Part shown: positions 834-28,064 of the stretch, in pieces | Numbering within the stretch: the stretch's first letter is position 1 | How the letters are laid out: each line of letters starts with the position of its first letter | NCBI GenBank assembly: GCA_965225945.1 | Contig: CBDDBZ010000037.1 | Coordinates: forward strand, 224,001-288,000 | Source: Alphaproteobacteria bacterium | Lineage (GTDB): Bacteria; Pseudomonadota; Alphaproteobacteria; GCA-2731375 | DNA length: 64,000 nt | Direction of reading: 5' to 3' | Position numbers and translations under genes: made by a program | Notes under the pieces: model-generated | What the model was told of the DNA's origin: nothing | The model's database searches: none | The model's input: only the letters and a program-made list of their open reading frames with translations

Positions 834-3800
834 CCGATATCGATCTTGAGGAAGGTGCCAGAGTAACCGCGAACACCAGTGGGTCGGGTGCGGGCGGCTC
901 GGTCGCCATCGCCGCCGATGACTTTTCGGCGAACGACGGTACGGTCCAGGCGATTTCATTGGCAAGCGGCGACGCGGGCGCCGTCTCGGTCATGGTCGCG
1001 GATCTGTTGAGCCTTGACGGCGGTTCCATCGTGTCGTCGACCCTCGGTGGTGGTGCCGGCGGCACCATCGATGTGGATGCGGCGCGAATTGTGATGGTTA
1101 ACGGCGGATCGATCAGCGCCGTTACCAGCGGCAGCGGTGCCGGTGGCAATATCGCCCTGACCGCCACGGACTTTATCACCCTGTCCGGTGGCTCCATTGT
1201 GAACGTGGCCTCATTCCAGCCCGGGAGCGGTGACGCTGGCTCGGTTACGGTCGATGTCACTGGCGACCTTTCCATCCTCACGGGATCGCGCATCGACTCG
1301 GGGACGAATTCTTCCGGCAACGCCGGGTCGATCACGGTCACAGCCGCCAACGTCCTGGTCAATGGTGCCGACTCGGTCGATCCGACCAGCCGGATCACAT
1401 CGGATTCCTTCGGCGCCGGCAGCGCGGGCGCGATTACGGTCACCGCGAGCAGGTCCGTCATCGTGCGAAATGGGGCCGGTATTCAGGCCAATACCTTTGT
1501 TGACGGACCGGCGACCGGGGGCCAGGTGACCATCGTGGCGCCGGATATCAAGCTGCAGGCAAGCGGCAATATCTCGGCGGGAACAGGATCCGCGGGCATT
1601 GGCGGGGATGTCGTGATTTCGACCGAACGCCTCGATGTCGACGACAATTCGCGTGTCGCCAGTCAGACAACCAGGTCCGGCGCGGCCGGCAGCGTCACCG
1701 TCGATGCAACCGAGTCCATCTTCGTGCGCAACGGCTCGATAATTCAGGCGCGGGCCACCACCGGTTCGACGGGCACCGCGGGTACGGTGACGTTGCGGAC
1801 CTCGGACCTGAGGGTCGGCCCCGAATCCACCGTCCGATCGAGCACCGATGGGGCCGGCGATGCGGGATCGGTCGTCGTCGAAGCAGACCGAATCACCGTG
1901 ATCAACGCGACAATTCGCAGCAATACTACCGCCGGCGGCGACGGAGGTTCGGTATCGATTACCGCGAGCGAAAGTCTGACGGGCCAAGTCGGCAGTATTC
2001 GATCGAGCGCCGACGGCACGTCGGCGACGGGCAACGCCGGCTCGGTCACCGTCGTTTCGCCGATCATCGACATGGTCGAATTCGCCATCCGGAGCAACGC
2101 GGACGGCGGTGGCGACGCCGGCTCGGTGGTGGTGATCGCGAGCGAGCGGATCACCGGCACGTTGGTCGGATTTCGCTCGAACGTCGATGGCGCGGGGGCG
2201 AACGGCAATGCCGGCACCGTCTTCGTGATGTCGCCTCTCATCGATCTCACCCGTGCCGGGATCCGCTCGAATGCCGACGGCACCGGCACGGGCGGCACTG
2301 TCACCGTCGAAGCGGATGAGCTGATCCTGACGGACAGCGCCATCCGCACCAATACCGGCGTCGCCGGCGACGCGGGCACCGTGATCGTAAACGTGAGCGG
2401 ACCGATCACGTTGACCGGCTCGACCACCATCAATTCATCGACCGGCGGCAGCGGCAATGCTGGGAGCGTTACGGTTTCGGCGGCCGGTGTCTTGACCCTT
2501 ACCAACAGCTCGATCAATTCCACGACCGCCGGCACCGGTGCCGGCGGATCGGTGGCCGTGAGCGCGCCCACCATCGCCATGTCGGGCGAAAGTCTGATCA
2601 GCGCCTCGACGGCCGGCGGCGGTAGGGGCGGCAACGTCGTGATTTCCGGCGGCACGCTGACCCTCGTCGAGGACGCCGAGATCCTCAGCGACGCCAATGC
2701 CGGCGGTGCCGGGGGCTCGGTTGTAATCCGCGTCGGCACCTTGAGCCTGTTCGGCGATGCCGAGATCGCCAGCGACGTGGATGAAGGCGCCGCCGGACAG
2801 GGTGGCTCCGTGACCATAACGGCGGATCGGATCAGCCTTTCCGGTGATTCCGAAATCTCGAGCGAGACCGGCGGCGCTGGCGCCGGCGGCAGCGTCGCCA
2901 TTACCGCTTCCGAGAGTATCCGGATCTTCGATCAGTCGGAAATTCTGACGACGGCCGAGGCCGACGGCAACGCGGGCGGGTTGGTCCTGAGCACCGGGAC
3001 ATTGGAGCTGAACGGCGGTGCGATCTCGGCCTCCACCACCGGCTCCGGGGATGCCGGCAACATCACCACGACGAGCAGCGGTACGACCAGCTTGCGTTCC
3101 GGCAGCACCATCACGGCTTCAACGACGGCGGCGGGCGCCGGCGGCTCCATATCCATTACCGCCGCCGGCCTGACTCTCGGCCAAGGCACCGAGATAGCGG
3201 CGACGAGTTCCGGTTCAGGTGCCGGCGGAGAGATCACCATCGATAGCGGCGATACCTATTTCAGCGAAGGCGGTTCAATCACCACCAGCACGACGCAGTC
3301 GGACGGCGGCAATATCACGCTGGCGGCCGTGCTATTGATCCATCTCATCGACAGCTCGATCACCACCAGCGTGAGCGGCGGACTTGGCGGCAGTGGCAAC
3401 ATCACCATCGATCCGAACTTCGTGATTTTGGACAACAGTAGAATAGAGGCCAACGCCTTCGGCGGCCCGGGCGGCAACATCTCGATCACGGCCGGCCAAT
3501 TGATCCGGAGCGCGGATAGTATCATTCAGGCGTCGTCACAGCTCGGTGTCACCGGAAACGTCCTGGTCAGCGCGCCGGAGAGTGACATCAGTGCCGGCTT
3601 GACCACCTTGACGGCCGCTTTCCTGGACGCCGCCAATCGGCTCGCCGAGCGCTGTGCGGCGCGCGGCGGCCGGGTCTCGGGCAGTCTTTCGACCGCCGGG
3701 CGGGGCGGCATGCCGCTCGGCCCCGAGGGGGCGCGAACGGCGGGTTACGTCATAGCCAAGGGCGCGACGACAGCCGCGAACGATAATGACGGCGGTGTTG

Positions 3801-3874: not shown

Positions 3875-4063
3875 ATTGGGGCGCCTCGGGGGGAGGGTCG
3901 CGTAATTGTAGCTTTACCTAAATCGTACGCGTCGATTATTGCGTTGTCATACATCACCTTCGGCTTGGCGGCGGCCTGGAGCGAATCCGCCGTCGCCCAG
4001 GTGCCGTCCTCGACGCGCGATCAGATCGAGCGGCCAGGCGATCTTCGTCGGGACCAAATACCG

Positions 4064-4203
4064 AAACCGGAACTCCCGGATGCCGCTCCGGAATTTCGCT
4101 TGCCGCCGATACCGGCGCCGGCCAAGCCCCAACAAACCGGAACTCCCGGATGCCGCTCCGGAATTTCGCTTGCCGCCGATACCGGCGCCGGCCAAGCCCC
4201 AAC
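4064..4203 (+). repeat. Exact 70-bp tandem duplication
   Basis: AAACCGGAACTCCCGGATG...GCCAAGCCCCAAC occurs at 4064-4133 and 4134-4203. Confidence 0.95.
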
Positions 4204-4291
4204 CCCTATCGTCGACAGGCATTATTGAGTCGGACCCGATTTCCTTGGACACAGAATTGGCTTAATCGAAGTGTCCAAGGAGGACCGGAAC

Positions 4292-4702
4292 ATGACCGAC
4301 AATTTTGAGAACAAAGTTGCTGTTGATGGGCCTGTGGTAAACGAGGGCGAGCTTGGCTCGTCCACGTTTTCCCCGGGCCAGGTTTCGCCGGCAGGCCCGC
4401 TGGGACTTGGCCAGCGGTGGACGGTGACGCGCAAGCGTGAGGTTGCCCTGCGGCTTTTGCGTGGCGAGCCGGTGGAACTTTTGTCGCGGCAGTTGGGCGT
4501 GGAGATTTTCCGGCTCGAGCAGTGGCGTGAGAAGGCGATCGCCGGGATCGATGCCTCGCTCAAGGAACGCAAGGGCGATCCGGTAAAGGCGGAACTGGAC
4601 ATCGCCATGAAGCGGATCGGGGAGTTGATCATGCAGGTGGAACTGCTGGAGGCCAAGACGGAGACGTCCGGCCCTTTGGGGCGGCGGAGGTCGCGGCGAT
4701 GA
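4292..4702 (+). CDS. IS OrfA (HTH DNA-binding subunit)
   Basis: RWTVTRKREVALRLLRGE HTH-like segment; AGGAGG RBS upstream; ATGA overlap with OrfB. Confidence 0.8.
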   Translation: MTDNFENKVAVDGPVVNEGELGSSTFSPGQVSPAGPLGLGQRWTVTRKREVALRLLRGEPVELLSRQLGVEIFRLEQWREKAIAGIDASLKERKGDPVKAELDIAMKRIGELIMQVELLEAKTETSGPLGRRRSRR

Positions 4703-5610
4703 GTGCCGCCACCTCTCCCGGCACGGGTTTGGCCTACGGCCTCCAGCGGGTCTGTGCGGCCTGGGGTTTTGCCCGTTCCTCGTTCTACGCCATGAAATCC
4801 CGGCAGCAGGCCACCGCTGAGCGCCCACCAGCAAAGCGCCGGGGACCGAAGCCCTCGATCTCGGACGAGGCTCTGCTGGTGGCCATCGAGGCCGACCTGG
4901 AGGCATCCCCCTGGGAGGGCGAGGGACACCGCAAGGTCTGGGCTCGGCTTCGGGTCTGTCGTGGCATCCGTGTTTCCCGCAAGCGGGTGCTCCGGGTGAT
5001 GCGCGAGAACAACCTGCTCTCGCCCCATCGCTGCCGCCGCCGTGGCGGAAATCCCCATGTCGGTGAGATCATCACCCATGCCCCCAACCTCATGTGGGGC
5101 ACGGACGGCGTTCGGGTGTTCACGGTGGACGACGGCTGGGGCTGGATATTCACCGCCATCGAGCATTGGAACGCCGAGTGCGTCGGCTGGCATGTGTGCA
5201 AGCGAGGCGACCGCTTCGCCGCCCTTCAGCCGATCTCCATGGGGCTTGCGAGGCTGTATGCCTCGACCTCCGCCGGTGCGGCGCGGGGGCTGGCCTTGCG
5301 GATGGATCACGGCTCCCAGTATCTGTCGGACCACTTCACCAACCAGATCAAGTTCTGGGGCATCCAGCCGTCCTACGCCTTCGTCGAACAGCCCCAGACC
5401 AACGGCGTCGCCGAGAGGTTCAATCGCACGCTCAAGGAACAGATCATCCATGGCCGCATCTACCGCAACATCGCGGAGCTGCGGAACGCCGTCCGCGGGT
5501 TCGTCGAACAGTACAATGCCCAGTGGATCGTGGAGAAGAACGGCTACCTGAGCCCCGCTCAAGCTCGTCAGGCGTGGCACACCGCGATGTCACTCAGGCC
5601 CGCCGCATGA
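4699..5610 (+). CDS. IS OrfB, integrase-core (rve) DDE transposase
   Basis: WGTDG, RMDHGSQY and PQTNGVAERFNRTLKE motifs. Confidence 0.9.
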   Translation: MSAATSPGTGLAYGLQRVCAAWGFARSSFYAMKSRQQATAERPPAKRRGPKPSISDEALLVAIEADLEASPWEGEGHRKVWARLRVCRGIRVSRKRVLRVMRENNLLSPHRCRRRGGNPHVGEIITHAPNLMWGTDGVRVFTVDDGWGWIFTAIEHWNAECVGWHVCKRGDRFAALQPISMGLARLYASTSAGAARGLALRMDHGSQYLSDHFTNQIKFWGIQPSYAFVEQPQTNGVAERFNRTLKEQIIHGRIYRNIAELRNAVRGFVEQYNAQWIVEKNGYLSPAQARQAWHTAMSLRPAA

Positions 5611-23087: not shown

Positions 23088-23822
23088 GCCGGCGGCCTCG
23101 GTGCCGCGTCCCGCGCTCGAGGTCCCGGACATCTTCCGCGACCACGGGCCCGGCTTCCGTCGGGCCCGGGCCGGTCGTCTGAGCCTCGGCCAACTGAAGG
23201 TCATGTCGGCGATCGAGTGTTGCCGCACCGCCGCGCTCGGCGGTCATGTCGCGGCCTGCGAGGACTGCGGGCAGAACCACATCGCCTACAATTCCTGTCG
23301 CAACCGCCATTGTCCCAAATGCCAAGGCCAGGTCGCGCGCGAATGGCTGGCGGCGCGAGAGGCCGAACTGCTCTCCGTCCCCTACTACCATCTCGTCTTC
23401 ACCCTGCCAGCGGCGATCGCCGACATCGCCTATCAGAACAAGTCGGTGATCTACGATATCCTGTTCAAGGCGAGCGCCGAGACCATGCTCACCATCGCCG
23501 CCGATCCCAAGCATCTCGGCGCCAAGATCGGCATCACCGCCGTGCTCCACACCTGGGGCTCGGCCATGACCCACCATCCCCACATCCACATGATCGTGCC
23601 GGGTGGCGGAATCTCACCTGACGGTAGCAGTTGGATCTCTTGCCGGCCCGGCTTCTTCCTGCCCGTCCGCGTGCTCTCGCGCCTCTTCCGCCGCCTCTTC
23701 ATCGAGAAGCTCCTCGCCGCCCACGAGGCAGGGCGCCTGAAGTTCTTCACCGACCACACCAGCCTCGCCGAGCCGGCGGCCTTCCGTGTCTTCCTCGCAC
23801 CGATGCGCAAACAAGAACCTGA

Positions 23823-24770
23823 TTACGCATCAACCTCAGCCAATTTGAGGAGCCGATATGGCATGGGGGGCGTGCGCAGGGCGTCGCGTCCGAGGGCCTC
23901 GATCATGTCGGCGAGCCGGTAGCGGCGGTTATATCGGTATTGGAACGCCGCCAGGTAGCGCGGAACGTGTTTGGGCCGGATCGCATGGTAGGTGCCACGC
24001 AGGGTGTTCTTGAGATTGCCGAGGGTGGTGTTGACCCATTTGAAGGCCGGCACGGCGACGGCCCCTGGTCCGGAGCCGGTGGGTATCGGATGGTGGGCGC
24101 AGCCTTGCGCGGTGACCGCGGTGAAGCAGTTGAGCCCGTCGCTGAAGACGCTCGTCCCGGGGCTCAGGTCGCGCTTGGCCATCTTGGCGATTTCGGCCTT
24201 GCGGAAGCCCTTGACGCGGCGCAGCTTGATGCGCACGGGCTGGCCCTCCGCCGTGGTCTGGACGGCGGCGACGAACGGCGTCTTGCCCGGCGCGCCCCGG
24301 CCGCGCTTGGCCCCGGAACGGCGGCCGCCGAGGTAGGCGTCGTCCATCTCCACCCGTCCGGTGAGCGGCAATTTGGCGTCGCGCTCGAGCATGGATTGCA
24401 TCAGTTTCTGCTTGATCTTCCAGGCCGTGGTCTGGGTGACGCCGAGCCGGCGGCCGAGTTCGATGGAGGAGATCCCCTTCTTCGATTGGGTCATGTGATA
24501 GATCGCCGAAAACCACAGGGTCAGCGCCAGCTTGGTCGCGTGGAAGAGCGTGCCGGCGGTCAGCGAGACTTGATGACGGCAGGCGGCGCATTGGTAGAGT
24601 TTTCGCCCGGCGATCTCGCAATGGCGCGTGGCACCGCATCGGGGGCAGGAGAAGCCCTCCGGCCAACGCCAGCGGAACAGGGCCTCGCGACACTGCTCCT
24701 CGGTGCCGTACATTTCACGGAAACGCGGCTCGCTGAGCCCCTACTGGAACTGAACCTTGTTGCGTGACAT
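23823..24770 (-). pseudogene. IS1595 transposase with an in-frame TAG at codon 10
   Basis: MSRNKVQFQ*GLSEPRFREMYGTEEQC; CPRC..CAAC, VEMDDAY and VFSDGL motifs. Confidence 0.85.
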
Positions 24771-24950
24771 CGTGAACTCCCTGAAAAACCACCAAATATT
24801 CGTAACTACCCAGGTACCCCGCTCTTGACCGCGAGAGGATGATGTAGGTGGTCGCCGGGGCCGGGTTTCCGCCGCCGCGTCGTTGATCGTCTCTTGACTC
24901 CATAGAATCGGGCGTCTATGGGTTGCGCTCTCGTGTGACGGGAGCGGCGC

Positions 24951-25616
24951 GTGGAATATTTTGGGTCGAAGGCGACGAGCGGTCTGTGCCAGGCGCTGAT
25001 TGCGCTGATGCCGCCGCACAGCGTTTACATCGAGAGCCACCTGGGGGGCGGTGCGCTGATGAAGCGCAAGCCAACGGGCGTGCGCTCGATCGGCATCGAC
25101 CGCGATGCGCAGGCGCTCGAGGCCTTTGCCTGTGACTACCCGGTCGAGTTGGTGCATGGCTGTGCCCATGCCTTTTTGGCCTCGTTCCCGTTTCTGGGCC
25201 CGGAGCTGGTCTACAGCGATCCCCCCTATCTGCACGCGACCCGCCGTTCGGCACGGCGCTATCGCTTCGACTACGAGGAGGTCGACCATGTCGCGCTCCT
25301 GGACCTGCTCAAGGATCTGCCCTGCCAGGTGATGGTCTCGGGCCATCCCTCGGCGCTCTATGACGAGATGCTGGCGGGCTGGCGCAGTCTGGCGCTGCAG
25401 GTGACGACCCAGGCCCAGGTGCGGACCGAGGTCGTGTGGTTCAACTTCGCGCCCGACCGGGTGCATTGGGCGAGCTACGCAGGCCGGAACTTCACCGACC
25501 GCCAGCGCATCAAGCGTAAGGCGGCCAACTGGGGCCGGCGTTACAAGGCCTTGCCGGCGGGCGAACGCCTCGCGGTGCTGGCCGCCATGATGGCCGTCGA
25601 TGCCGAGGACCCGTGA
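24951..25616 (+). CDS. Small Dam/D12-class DNA adenine methyltransferase
   Basis: YFGSK, motif I-like YIESHLGGGA, motif IV YSDPPY, and TEVVWFNF. Confidence 0.85.
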   Translation: MEYFGSKATSGLCQALIALMPPHSVYIESHLGGGALMKRKPTGVRSIGIDRDAQALEAFACDYPVELVHGCAHAFLASFPFLGPELVYSDPPYLHATRRSARRYRFDYEEVDHVALLDLLKDLPCQVMVSGHPSALYDEMLAGWRSLALQVTTQAQVRTEVVWFNFAPDRVHWASYAGRNFTDRQRIKRKAANWGRRYKALPAGERLAVLAAMMAVDAEDP

Positions 25617-27151
25617 CGCTGTCGCGCTGGCACGAGGACCTCGCCGCCCATGACGAGGCCTTCGCGTGCCTGCAAGATCTTCTTGACCCCTCATCCTTCG
25701 CAATCACAGTCGTCAAGGCCTTCCGGGAATGGGGCCAGGGGCTGTTGCGCCTGGCCACGGCGCTCGTCCGGGAGAATGCCGCGCTCGAGCGGGAGAACGC
25801 GACCCTGCGGGACCGCATCGCCGAGCTCGAGCGGAGCGCGGCGCTTGACAGCACCACCAGCAGCAAGCCGCCCGCCAGCGACGGCCTGCGCAAGAAGAGC
25901 GGAACCCAGAGGCGCACCCGAAGCCAGCGCGGCAAGTCCGGCAGGCCAAGCGGCGGCCAGCCGGGCCACAAGGGAACGACGCTGGCGCGGACCGAGAGCC
26001 CGGACCATGTTGTGGATCATGACCCCTCCGCCTGTTCGGGCTGCGGCGCACCGCTGTCGGACGCCGACCGTCACCGCGCGCCCGTCTGTCGACAGGTCTT
26101 CGATGTGCCCGAGCCACGCCCCCTGGAGGTCACCGAACACCGCGCCCATCGCTGCCTCTGCGGCGCCTGCGCCACCGTGACAGGAGCCGTCTTCCCGGAC
26201 GGCGTGACCGCCCCGGTCCAGTACGGGCCACGCATCACCGCCTGGGTGAGCTACCTGCTGTACGCCCAGTTCGTTCCCGAGAAGCGCTTGGCCGAACTCA
26301 TGAGCGACCTCTTCGCAGTGTCCATCTCCACAGCCACGATCACCGCCATGGGCCGGCGAATCGCCAGGCGCTTCGAGCCCTTCCTCGCCCATGTCGCAGA
26401 CGTGATCCGCACAGCGGTCCCGGTCAAGCACCTCGACGAAACCGGCCTGCGGATCGCCGCCCGTACCCGCTGGCTCCACGTGCTGTGCACCCCATTCCTG
26501 ACCGTCCTGCGCATCGGCGCGGGACGCGGCGATGTCGAAAAGGACCTCGAAGGCATCCTCATCCATGACGATTACGCCGCCTACTTCACCCTCAAGGGCG
26601 TGCGCCACGGCGCCTGCAACGCCCATCACCTGCGCGAACTCCAGGCCCTGATCGACATCGAGAAGGAAGACTGGGCAAAGAGCATGCACCGCCTCCTTGA
26701 GCGCGCACACAGGGCTACCCGCTTCTCCCGTGAGAACGGCCGCGACGTGCCCGCCTCCCTGGTGGCCCGGATCTCGCGGGCCTGGGCCCGCATCCTCGAC
26801 CACGCCATCGCCTTCCACGAGGCGCAGCCGCCGCTCCGGACCGGCAAGCGCGGACGAAAGAAACGCCGCATCGGTCATAACCTCGCGCTCCGCCTCCGCA
26901 AGCACAAGGAGGGATGCCTGCGATTCCTCACCGACCCGCGCACGCCGTTTACGAACAATGAGGCCGAACGTGACCTCCGAATGGCCAAGCTGCGCCAGAA
27001 GATCTCCGGTGGCTTCCGCTCCGAGAGGGGTGCCTACAACTTCGCCAGAATGCGTGCCGTCATCGCCACCGCCCGAAAGCAAGGCTGGAACGTCCTCCAG
27101 ACCCTGGTGCATCCCGATCCGATGCAACTAATCCCCCAACTGCGCCTCTGA
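25613..27151 (+). CDS. IS66 transposase (TnpC-like)
   Basis: SSKPPASDG, GGQPGHKG, zinc finger, HLDETG, CNAHHLREL and FTNNEAERDLRMAK motifs. Confidence 0.95.
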   Translation: MTLSRWHEDLAAHDEAFACLQDLLDPSSFAITVVKAFREWGQGLLRLATALVRENAALERENATLRDRIAELERSAALDSTTSSKPPASDGLRKKSGTQRRTRSQRGKSGRPSGGQPGHKGTTLARTESPDHVVDHDPSACSGCGAPLSDADRHRAPVCRQVFDVPEPRPLEVTEHRAHRCLCGACATVTGAVFPDGVTAPVQYGPRITAWVSYLLYAQFVPEKRLAELMSDLFAVSISTATITAMGRRIARRFEPFLAHVADVIRTAVPVKHLDETGLRIAARTRWLHVLCTPFLTVLRIGAGRGDVEKDLEGILIHDDYAAYFTLKGVRHGACNAHHLRELQALIDIEKEDWAKSMHRLLERAHRATRFSRENGRDVPASLVARISRAWARILDHAIAFHEAQPPLRTGKRGRKKRRIGHNLALRLRKHKEGCLRFLTDPRTPFTNNEAERDLRMAKLRQKISGGFRSERGAYNFARMRAVIATARKQGWNVLQTLVHPDPMQLIPQLRL

Positions 27152-28064
27152 GAACACCGGCACCGCTACCAGCCCGGACCCCCACGATCCCTCACATACA
27201 AACGCTCGGGCCAATCAGACCTGGGTAGTTACAAATATTCACGATTTGTACCACATCAATCCGGCTGAGTAAAGTGCGTAATCAGGAACAAGAATGGGTC
27301 GTCTACGCCAAGCCGCCCTTCGGCGGACCAGAGGCCGTGCTCGCCTATCTCTCCCGCTACACCCACCGTGTCGCCATCTCGAACAGCCGCCTGGTCAGCT
27401 GCGACAGCCAAGGCGTCATCTTCAAGTACAAGGACTACCGGCGCAAAGGACGCGAGCGCTACAAGACCTTGCCCCTGGCCGTGCCCGAGTTCATCCGCCG
27501 CTTCCTCCTCCATGTCCTGCCCTCGGGCTTTCACCGCATCCGCCATTACGGCCTCTTCGCCAACGGCGGTCGCACCCGCAACATCTCCCTTGCCCGCGAA
27601 CTGCTTGCCATGCCGGCACCGGAGAGTGAGGCCGACGATGCCGCGAGTGACGATGATACCGAACCGCCGTCCCTCTCAGAGCCCTGCCCGCAGTGCGGCG
27701 GCCGTATGATCGTCATCGAGCGCTTCGAGGCCGGCGCCCAACCACGCGCCCCGCCCCGTGCACGGCCCCTGGCCAGGGCCACGGCAGCATGACCGACACC
27801 GCTTCGAATAACGCTATTGCCGCCGCTCACCCGCGGCCACGATCCCGCTCGCCGCAACACCATCGAGCGCGCAGGGAACCACCTGCGAGACCCGCCGGCA
27901 TCGACCCGAAGTCGCCATCAAACCACCCTGCCGGTGTCGTCGCCAATCAGATCCGAGCCATCCAGCAGCGCCGGCCACCCGAGAAAGCTGGCCCGCCGCT
28001 CGCAAATCCCCATAGACCGAGCGTGCCGCACCGCCGAGCCTAGTCCTGCCCGCGGTTTCCTCCC

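Follow-up and report, generated by a model that had tools for sequence, protein, structure and literature searches.

The stretch of DNA analysed here (64,000 nucleotides of a contig from an Alphaproteobacteria bacterium, hereafter called the window) carries at 24802..27232 an insertion sequence (IS) of the IS66 family in which the transposase gene is preceded by a gene for a 221-aa protein with the fold of a Dam-type DNA adenine methyltransferase (MTase). This protein is homologous from end to end to Upf31, a self-repressor studied in IncP-1beta plasmids, and we propose with moderate confidence that the gene and its upstream region form a portable, self-repressed cassette which drives and, at the same time, throttles the transposase. 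The proposal is built on what was observed directly, namely the anatomy of the element, its mobility, the Upf31 homology, the geometry of the presumed operator, the distribution of the cassette across IS families and the purifying selection acting on its gene. Relative to the first-pass annotation of this region, which was made from the letters of the window and had described an IS66 element carrying its own adenine MTase, the analysis adds the full-length homology to a studied self-repressor, an operator geometry matching that of IncP-1beta plasmids, and a reading that places the regulator first and the enzyme only perhaps.

An IS66-family element with an additional upstream gene

The element is 2431 bp long, lies on the plus strand and corresponds to an IS66-family member of the single-transposase, ISBst12-like type to which a cassette has been added. 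It is bounded by terminal inverted repeats (TIRs) of 14 perfect bases, GTAACTACCCAGGT at 24802-24815 on the plus strand and its reverse complement at 27219-27232 on the minus strand; the 13-bp perfect repeats given previously were correct as to the perfect match and too short as to the length, 14 bases being read in the sequence. In a repeat search of the window, the pair was scored as 21 nt at 95%, part of the target site duplication (TSD) being included. The 8-bp TSD previously claimed is present on both sides of the element, the two copies of AAATATTC (24794-24801 and 27233-27240, read directly) being identical. Between the two ends, the list of open reading frames (ORFs) contains two genes and no others, both on the plus strand: the 221-aa Upf31-family gene (24951-25616; GTG start, with GGGAG 6 nt upstream) and the gene of a 512-aa IS66-family DDE transposase, TnpC (25613-27151; GTG start, with GAGGA 3 nt upstream). 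As annotated, these genes overlap at GTGA (25613-25616) and both are intact, with full frames of 221 and 512 aa. The GTG start of the transposase is supported because its N-terminal 45 residues are retained in an 80%-identical relative (L018).

The element is the innermost member of a three-level nest (23101-27792), being inserted in an IS1595 element which is itself inserted in an IS91 transposase gene. The two pieces of the IS91 gene (23101-23922 and 27274-27792) are separated by the IS1595 insertion. The IS1595 host (23818-27286) has 31-nt imperfect end repeats and an 8-bp duplication, AACAAGAA; its transposase ORF (23823-24713, minus strand) is intact and the IS66 element is located between this ORF and the IS1595 end. 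The earlier statement that the two host elements are broken is therefore correct for the IS91 transposase gene, which is split, and incorrect for the IS1595 transposase ORF.

The element is an active, live insertion sequence. The source genome (39 contigs, 6.27 Mb) contains 15 full-length copies of ~100% identity with identical boundaries, together with one copy split by an insertion of ~2 kb near element position 2280 (C38:239517-243982), and the 221-aa ORF is intact in 16 copies across this genome. An exact-match script, which left three further copies (L006-L008) unresolved, found perfect 8-bp TSDs in four of the five copies that it resolved (L001-L005, L003 being the window's own). The fifth, L005, is one of two copies located 3 kb apart in opposite orientation (C25:13797-21713) and has no TSD, as expected from recombination between copies. 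Contigs from four public sequencing runs stop at 24799-24806 and at 27232-27234, i.e., at the element ends, and in a single contig (run X5) 24794 is joined to 27238, which corresponds to the IS1595 without insertion, this empty site being weak evidence (depth 2.7, 7 other letters). These data support the annotated picture of a mobile IS66-family element in which a compact Dam-fold gene is tightly joined to the transposase gene.

Homology of the 221-aa protein to Upf31

With Upf31.0 of plasmid pB8, which was used as the full-length Upf31 reference, the 221-aa protein shares 43% identity (96/222 residues, E 4e-64) in an alignment that runs from residue 1 to 218 and includes the C-terminal RIKRK..W..ER segment; identity to the truncated Upf31 of R751 is 46% (E 8e-53). 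The two proteins are of similar length (221 vs 224-225 aa), are homologous end to end and both retain the DPPY motif; both combine a globular Dam-like domain with a basic helical C-terminal domain, in which W194 of the window protein corresponds to W198 of Upf31. As described in a recent study (Elg et al. 2025, PMC11997246), Upf31 is built of an N-terminal domain (residue 1 to ~180) and a C-terminal domain (CTD, ~180-225), the latter being required for repression and resembling the KorA dimerisation domain. In that study, the activity of the 68-bp promoter in front of upf31 dropped from 4.76 to 0.09 XylE units (~50-fold) when full-length Upf31 (a R751/pBP136 hybrid in these measurements) was present. 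The methylation tests reported there were made with Upf31 of pBP136: GATC methylation was not restored in a dam-negative strain, and no kinetic signal was reported by SMRT (single-molecule real-time) sequencing when Upf31 was overexpressed in methylase-free E. coli (PMC11997246).

Upf31 homologues were reported by these authors in 99 plasmids, almost all of them IncP-1beta (PMC11997246). The Upf31 family is far wider than described. Homologues were found in 189 plasmid records, including 134 conjugative ones, and in 75 phage records, for example at 48% in P2-like Salmonella phages. A word-indexed protein search returned 3793 proteins at E <=0.001 among 4372 candidates, and 5554 clusters at 50% identity were counted, of which 521 at 1e-30 or better. 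Upf31, so far described as almost restricted to IncP-1beta plasmids, now appears to belong to a family of thousands whose operator architecture is conserved, and the 'DNA adenine methylase' labels that thousands of such genes bear in annotations are unproven.

A Dam-like fold without the target-recognition domain

The 221-aa protein had been annotated as a Dam/D12-type MTase, a label which agrees with its motifs and fold and fails at the family thresholds. A single-sequence search gave no Pfam match at E 0.01, and the scores of the protein are too low for both curated families, 13.1 bits vs 22 for PF02086 and 24.2 vs 114.85 for TIGR00571. Among 52 family members, 50 match PF02086 at E up to 1, the best at 9.2e-15. 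A single-sequence search of solved structures returned only DpnM, at E 0.2; with a family profile built from an alignment of 52 homologues (A1), DpnM (3.5e-10) and E. coli Dam (2.3e-6) were the best matches. The match between this profile and DpnM is broken into two pieces, 2-68 with DpnM 16-80 and 81-159 with DpnM 183-266, and leaves DpnM ~81-182 unpartnered. In the profile alignment as in the structural model described below, the target-recognition domain of Dam-type enzymes, ~100 residues long, has no counterpart in the 221-aa protein. The two-piece alignment therefore supports the suspicion, first raised by the short distance between motif I and DPPY, that this domain is missing; the distance itself, put at about 55 aa, is exact, the GGG at 32-34 and D90 being 55 residues apart.

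The motifs of the MTase class are nevertheless present: motif I reads LGGGA at 31-35, the acid that follows is D50 and DPPY occupies 90-93. Conservation was examined in two sets, 120 homologues of >=65% identity and 86 more distant ones. Near-invariant in both are an N-terminal GxK loop, H23, GGG 32-34, D50, DPPY, H113 and the segment RIKRK..W194..E205, so that the basic C-terminal tail noted from the sequence is real and conserved among homologues. DPPY itself is kept in 119-120/120 close and in 82-86/86 distant members. The AlphaFold2 model (pLDDT 92.3, pTM 0.87) comprises a class-I methyltransferase core up to ~residue 164, followed by a C-terminal helical hairpin (helices 181-199 and 203-219). 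The top folds retrieved by Foldseek are DpnM, Mcbe1 and E. coli Dam, with TM-scores of ~0.5. The protein thus resembles Dam and DpnM in the N-terminal GxK loop, in motif I, in DPPY and in being matched best by them in profile and structure, and differs from them by the lack of the ~100-residue recognition domain, by the additional C-terminal hairpin and by TM-scores of only ~0.5. When a complex of two copies was predicted with alignment A1, the scores were 0.23 and 0.27, the mark being 0.42, which counts neither for nor against dimerisation. The ESM Atlas search yielded clusters named as methylases only and no structure. A Hia5-type non-specific methylase was considered as the closest relative and rejected, Hia5 having 281 aa and keeping a divergent recognition region (PMC3299994).

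We do not class the 221-aa protein as a D12 enzyme, because two defining features fail, the recognition domain and the family threshold. On the basis of sequence comparison, it belongs to the Upf31 family and is a divergent offshoot of the Dam/D12 class that lacks the recognition domain. As its S-adenosylmethionine (SAM) and DPPY motifs are near-invariant, the active-site pocket is probably still in use, be it for catalysis or for DNA recognition.

The possibility closest to the first-pass annotation is that of an adenine MTase of relaxed specificity carried as a passenger, which would shield the element-bearing DNA from restriction or alter the host epigenome and would be linked to the transposase by shared expression only. 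A Dam-type fold with its motifs and without recognition domain speaks in favour of such an enzyme. Plasmid homologues of 45-55% identity adjoin genes of anti-restriction type (SprT-like, zincin-like metallopeptidase) or transfer genes, homologues are found in phages such as the P2-like Salmonella phages, and non-specific phage adenine methylases do exist, Hia5 for example, but with 281 aa and a divergent recognition region (PMC3299994). However, when Upf31 was overexpressed, no kinetic signal was seen at any place in the E. coli genome (PMC11997246), although a relaxed enzyme would be the easiest to detect, and neither a passenger role nor restriction shielding explains why the gene occupies a fixed upstream, same-strand position (75/80 loci, four IS types) or why its promoter contains a conserved palindrome (see below). 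We consider this possibility distinctly unlikely.

One side observation concerns a database protein, P0127 (236 aa), in which the first ~150 residues are Upf31-like and are followed by the C-terminal end of an IS66 transposase; it probably results from an internal deletion.

A conserved palindrome in the putative promoter of the cassette

Upstream of the 221-aa gene, a putative sigma-70-type promoter is located at 24894-24922 on the plus strand, with the -35 hexamer TTGACT (24894-24899), a 17-nt spacer and the -10 hexamer TATGGG (24917-24922). It is overlaid by a palindrome, CCATAGA-N8-TCTATGG (24900-24921), the presumed operator, with core half-sites CATAG (24901-24905) and CTATG (24916-24920). 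The whole reads TTGACT-C-CATAG-AATCGGGCGT-CTATG-GG, the arms of the palindrome occupying the promoter spacer and the -10. CATAG-N9-11-CTATG has a single match in the 64-kb window, where 0.04 would be expected. To define the conserved part, 130 nt of upstream sequence were taken from 73 related loci and reduced to 39 distinct sequences, the consensus of which is CTTGAC-a-N-cATAG-N10-CTATGg. The strict motif is present in 20/39 of these and the core ATAG-N10-CTAT in 29/39; nine of the ten others are off by one base in one half-site, and in the tenth, L023, the second half-site is degraded. Base-shuffled controls gave 0 to 0.05 per 39. When six cassette upstreams representing four IS types were aligned, the mean column identity was 48%, and the invariant positions were TTGAC, ATAG and CTATG plus a few scattered bases. 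The first half-site is therefore conserved at a place where RNA polymerase has no sequence requirement, as expected for an operator.

The same architecture precedes upf31.0 in R751 and pB8, where the sequence reads TTGACAG-CATCG-N10-CGATG-CTGG, with a spacing identical to that of TTGACTC-CATAG-N10-CTATG-GG in the window. Both systems thus have their own promoter with a CATNG-N10-CNATG palindrome directly after TTGAC, and they differ in the half-site, CATAG in the window and CATCG in the IncP plasmids, this difference being symmetric (A/T vs C/G). The inverted repeat of the IncP-1beta plasmids, CAGCATCG, was named as the likely and most obvious operator by the authors of the Upf31 study (PMC11997246). 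In pB8 (L096 575-603, 621-648) and R751 (L094), two tandem copies of CATCG-N10-CGATG are found, one in the promoter and one ~50 nt upstream; unlike these, the IS cassettes have the promoter copy only. A Xanthomonas plasmid homologue also has CATAG-N10-CTATG, and no such palindrome is present in the 170 nt read for a Sphingobium plasmid homologue. By analogy with the 68-bp promoter region of upf31, the activity of which has been measured (PMC11997246), the sequence at 24894-24922 would function as a promoter.

All seven elements examined contain one full palindrome, in the promoter, and no copy at the IS ends or elsewhere. Regulation of the element's own ends, which had been suggested as a role of the MTase, is therefore unlikely, and regulation of its own promoter likely. 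The leader between promoter and gene can be folded into a 9-bp hairpin (24926-24946) over the ribosome-binding site, with -14 kcal/mol and z -1.1; as 29/200 shuffles fold as well, it is not significant. Pairings of this kind are also visible in related cassettes. Four terminator-like matches in a scan of 24750-27300 all fall inside coding sequence and were not used.

The palindrome also raises the question of whether the protein could be an enzyme dedicated to this site. In such a portable epigenetic switch, a dimeric protein, at once repressor and N6-adenine MTase, would methylate only the adenines of its own operator, CATAG-N10-CTATG, and its binding would depend on methylation; the operator, hemimethylated after passage of the replication fork, would be de-repressed and allow a brief expression of the transposase. 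The switch would have been installed before IS66, ISAs1 and IS701 transposases (see below), and Upf31 with the CAGCATCG repeats of IncP-1beta plasmids may work by the same principle. Across the family, including a 52-member alignment, DPPY, the SAM motif GxG and the acid that binds ribose hardly vary, the class-I core of the model is complete and most similar to DpnM and E. coli Dam, and the A of CAT is the base common to the IS and IncP half-sites beside the variable position. The published tests bear on this possibility in two ways. No methylation has been seen for any family member (PMC11997246), and the strain used for SMRT sequencing carried the expression vector only (PMC11997246). We estimate that the 10-base bipartite site occurs ~4-5 times per 4.6-Mb genome (4.6e6 x 4^-10), so that motif discovery by SMRT sequencing would miss methylation of the operator, the site being so rare and the strain carrying only the expression vector. 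The operator geometry thus points to the DNA site that is read by Upf31-type proteins and to a reason why methylation could have gone unseen in the published test. On the other hand, the recognition domain that gives Dam its specificity is absent, and the switch stacks one assumption, methylation-sensitive binding, upon another. We consider such a switch unlikely. It is the near-perfect conservation of the SAM and DPPY motifs that led us to keep both enzymatic possibilities.

The cassette precedes transposases of unrelated IS families

The best 80 of 154 confirmed loci that encode relatives of the 221-aa protein (69-100% identity) were compared. A DDE transposase gene is located directly downstream and on the same strand in 75 of them. 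On the basis of this downstream gene, 34 loci were assigned to IS66-A, with a transposase close to that of the window, 22 to IS66-B, with an IS66 transposase ~28% identical to that of the window, 13 to an ISAs1 type (DDE_Tnp_1_assoc plus DDE_Tnp_1 in Pfam) and 6 to an IS701 type (DDE_5), 5 having none of these (nested or truncated). The boundaries of the units were established from near-identical copies with different flanks, from inverted repeats and from TSDs. The IS66-A unit is that of the window (24802-27232, 2431 bp, with end repeat GTAACTACCCAGGT and an 8-bp TSD). The IS66-B unit (L057 3886-6138) has 2253 bp, the end repeat GTAACTACTCACCCC and an 8-bp TSD; the ISAs1-type unit (L070 3898-6040) has 2143 bp, the end repeat CAGCAGTTCTCATTTTG and a 9-bp TSD; and the IS701-type unit (L048 3446-6229) has 2784 bp and a 5-bp TSD, CTNAG. 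In all four types, the cassette is located inside the IS ends. The GTGA overlap of the two genes is found in IS66-A and in the ISAs1 type. The IS701-type element contains in addition ~500 bp to the left of the cassette (L048 3446-4000), with an opposite-strand ORF of 176 codons that belongs to no Pfam family.

DNA similarity between the types is restricted to the gene itself plus at most ~70 bp upstream and 18 bp downstream. In the closest inter-type pair, the window and the IS701 type, it amounts to 83% over 761 bp, a stretch that reaches 73 bp upstream of the gene and 18 bp beyond its end. When 49 proteins were compared in a maximum-likelihood tree, the IS-borne ones formed one clade apart from three plasmid homologues (100/97), and within this clade the types are mixed: the IS701 pair falls inside the IS66-A clade (100/99) and the ISAs1 type groups with IS66-B (99/93). 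Three labels of this tree are doubtful, 'IS701' for L079 and 'other' for L066 and L071, as the left ends of these loci carry IS66-type repeats; the transposases downstream may be later insertions, and the three loci were counted among the five with none of the four types. As judged from these comparisons, the cassette, i.e., ~750 bp comprising promoter, palindrome and gene, is portable between IS families and has been placed in two distant IS66 lineages, in ISAs1 and in IS701.

The ratio of non-synonymous to synonymous substitution rates (dN/dS) of the cassette gene is 0.14-0.29 in 17 pairs between cassette lineages, an 18th pair being saturated at synonymous sites; by this measure, the gene is under purifying selection within the ISs. 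Three loci from one Pseudomonadales metagenome-assembled genome (MAG), L051 (3916-5048), L052 (~3925-5045) and L053 (3917-4929), are deletion derivatives of IS66-B of 1.0-1.1 kb, which keep the end repeats, the promoter/operator and the full Upf31-like gene and only ~85-120 transposase codons; the TSD of L052 matches at 7/8 positions. By analogy with the repressor-making deletion derivatives of other transposons, they could be non-autonomous copies that produce the regulator only.

These observations bear on the idea that the cassette is in essence a mobile promoter, the IS gaining a strong outward-reading promoter for its transposase while the gene hitch-hikes and its product plays no part in transposition. 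The gene is indeed accompanied by a -35 close to consensus and by a conserved -10-like hexamer, and relatives of these ISs that have a single gene do without the protein. However, the coding sequence is under purifying selection at the dN/dS given above, the ORF is intact in all 16 copies of the source genome, and L051-L053 keep the gene and lose most of the transposase. We consider this idea highly improbable.

Near-identical elements (84-100% protein identity) were found in MAGs of Alphaproteobacteria, Dehalococcoidia, Tectimicrobiota and Binatia; elements that are more distant come from Gammaproteobacteria, Caldilineaceae, Kiritimatiellota and Thermodesulfobacteriota. For many runs that carry the element, the label is sponge metagenome. 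This suggests a recent cross-phylum spread within one habitat. The cassette-bearing IS families thrive in marine bacteria of many phyla, for the most part associated with sponges.

A model for self-limited transposase expression

The self-repressed cassette that we favour would work as follows. The protein, with its Dam-type fold and C-terminal hairpin, would bind CATAG-N10-CTATG as a dimer via its C-terminal helices. The regulator gene and, translationally coupled to it, the transposase gene would be transcribed from a single promoter, and binding would shut this promoter, so that the output of transposase would be low and self-limited. As the repressor made from each copy would act in trans on all copies, expression per copy would drop as the copy number rises. 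Binding, repression and co-transcription are here transferred from Upf31 by analogy. Since its promoter, operator and regulator move as one unit, the cassette should work before any transposase, which would explain its moves between IS families.

Several points weigh against this model. All that it says about function is taken over from a homologue that is 43-46% identical. The best-studied effect of Upf31 was proposed to be exerted via KorB, and there is no KorB in the IS. The main tension comes from the near-invariant DPPY, GxG and SAM-ribose acid D50, which a pure repressor role does not explain. In IS66-B (gap of 20-35 nt) and in the IS701 type (~70 nt), the two genes do not overlap, and coupling would there be achieved by co-transcription alone. 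The upstream sequences are related by descent and the motif counts are thus not independent events. A consensus promoter scan of 24750-27300 lists 0 sites, the -10 of the window, TATGGG, being poor; nothing is listed because this hexamer lacks the T at position 6. Finally, the element is present in eight metatranscriptomic runs of three studies, in the form of assembled contigs that possibly derive from DNA, but these RNA-library contigs give no transcript, start, strand or level.

Comparison with known regulators and significance

Negative regulators of transposition that are encoded by the element and act in trans on all copies are represented by InsA of IS1, the inhibitor protein of Tn5 and OrfA of IS911. 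They are derived from the transposase gene or overlap it, and each is confined to one IS family. In contrast, the window protein has an MTase fold, is unrelated to the transposase, has its own promoter and presumed operator and is found in at least three IS families. A second parallel is the control of IS10, Tn5 (IS50) and IS903 by the host Dam enzyme, which acts on GATC in the transposase promoter and in the IS end. In the present case, it is the element that encodes the protein, there is no site at the ends and methylation is unproven; what is common to both is an adenine-methylase-type protein tied to transposase control. With respect to Upf31 itself, the difference is one of context, Upf31 being encoded in the plasmid backbone whereas the window gene heads a transposase operon inside an IS.

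In ISfinder usage, a gene without function in transposition that is located inside IS ends defines a passenger-carrying IS or 'transporter IS' (tIS). The Upf31-like gene is inside the IS ends; its fixed upstream position and its promoter/operator point to a function in controlling the transposase, so that the term 'passenger' may not suit it. We describe the element as an insertion sequence with an accessory regulator, which is here foreign and exchangeable. In a literature search made mainly at the level of abstracts, which extended neither to ISfinder nor to the supplements to the Upf31 study (PMC11997246), where the operator may already be marked, no element of IS66, ISAs1 or IS701 was found to be described with an internal methylase or Upf31-like gene, nor was such a gene as the fixed upstream partner of a transposase.

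ISs are usually described as a transposase and two ends, any regulator being derived from the transposase gene. The cassette represents a different situation, in which a foreign regulator module was taken up by several families and is under selection. It also offers a simple experimental system for the question of how elements limit their own copy number.

The transposase belongs to a single-gene IS66 branch

The 512-aa protein matches NF033517 with 290.7 bits (cut-off 180, E 1.8e-86) and, in Pfam, DDE_Tnp_IS66 (PF03050, 3.9e-41), DUF6444 (5.3e-10) and, weakly, zf-IS66. Its best matches in the plasmid collection, at 45-48% identity, are from Bradyrhizobium, Octadecabacter and Fischerella, and more distant ones (36-38%) are elements of Geobacillus plasmids, of which the IS66 copy on G. 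kaustophilus pHTA426 is assigned to the subgroup ISBst12 (PMC8024623, Table 4). The three nearest annotated relatives that were inspected are all lone IS66 transposase genes, with no tnpA/tnpB and no upstream methylase. A DDE transposase, TIRs, an 8-bp TSD, multiple copies and the absence of tnpA/tnpB were all found in the window element, and the upstream gene is not a member of an IS66 Orf1/Orf2 family in Pfam. The window transposase thus falls, by sequence, in the single-gene ISBst12-like branch of IS66, the definition of the ISBst12 group (IS66 elements with a single transposase) being that of ISfinder. It shares with this group the DDE_Tnp_IS66 domain with a DUF6444 N-terminus, ends starting with GTAA, the 8-bp TSD and the lack of tnpA/tnpB, and differs from it in that a second gene, preceded by a promoter and a presumed operator of its own, lies upstream.

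As the nearest relatives are single-gene elements, the small gene is an acquisition and not a replacement of tnpA/tnpB. The earlier remark that the MTase gene sits where tnpA/tnpB normally lie is thus accurate as to position and misleading if understood as replacement. The annotation had also raised the case that homologous ISs mostly lack the MTase, and this is what was found for the nearest annotated relatives of the transposase; the finding is nonetheless not an ordinary one, because the cassette recurs in other IS families.

A second IS66-type relative, also single-gene and without cassette, is present in ~20 copies in the source genome, with 66% DNA identity over the DDE region. In one cassette-less IS66 copy (L095 1328-3539, contig C35), the leucine-zipper N-terminus (1328-1534) and the remainder of the transposase (2253-3539) are separated by ~720 bp.

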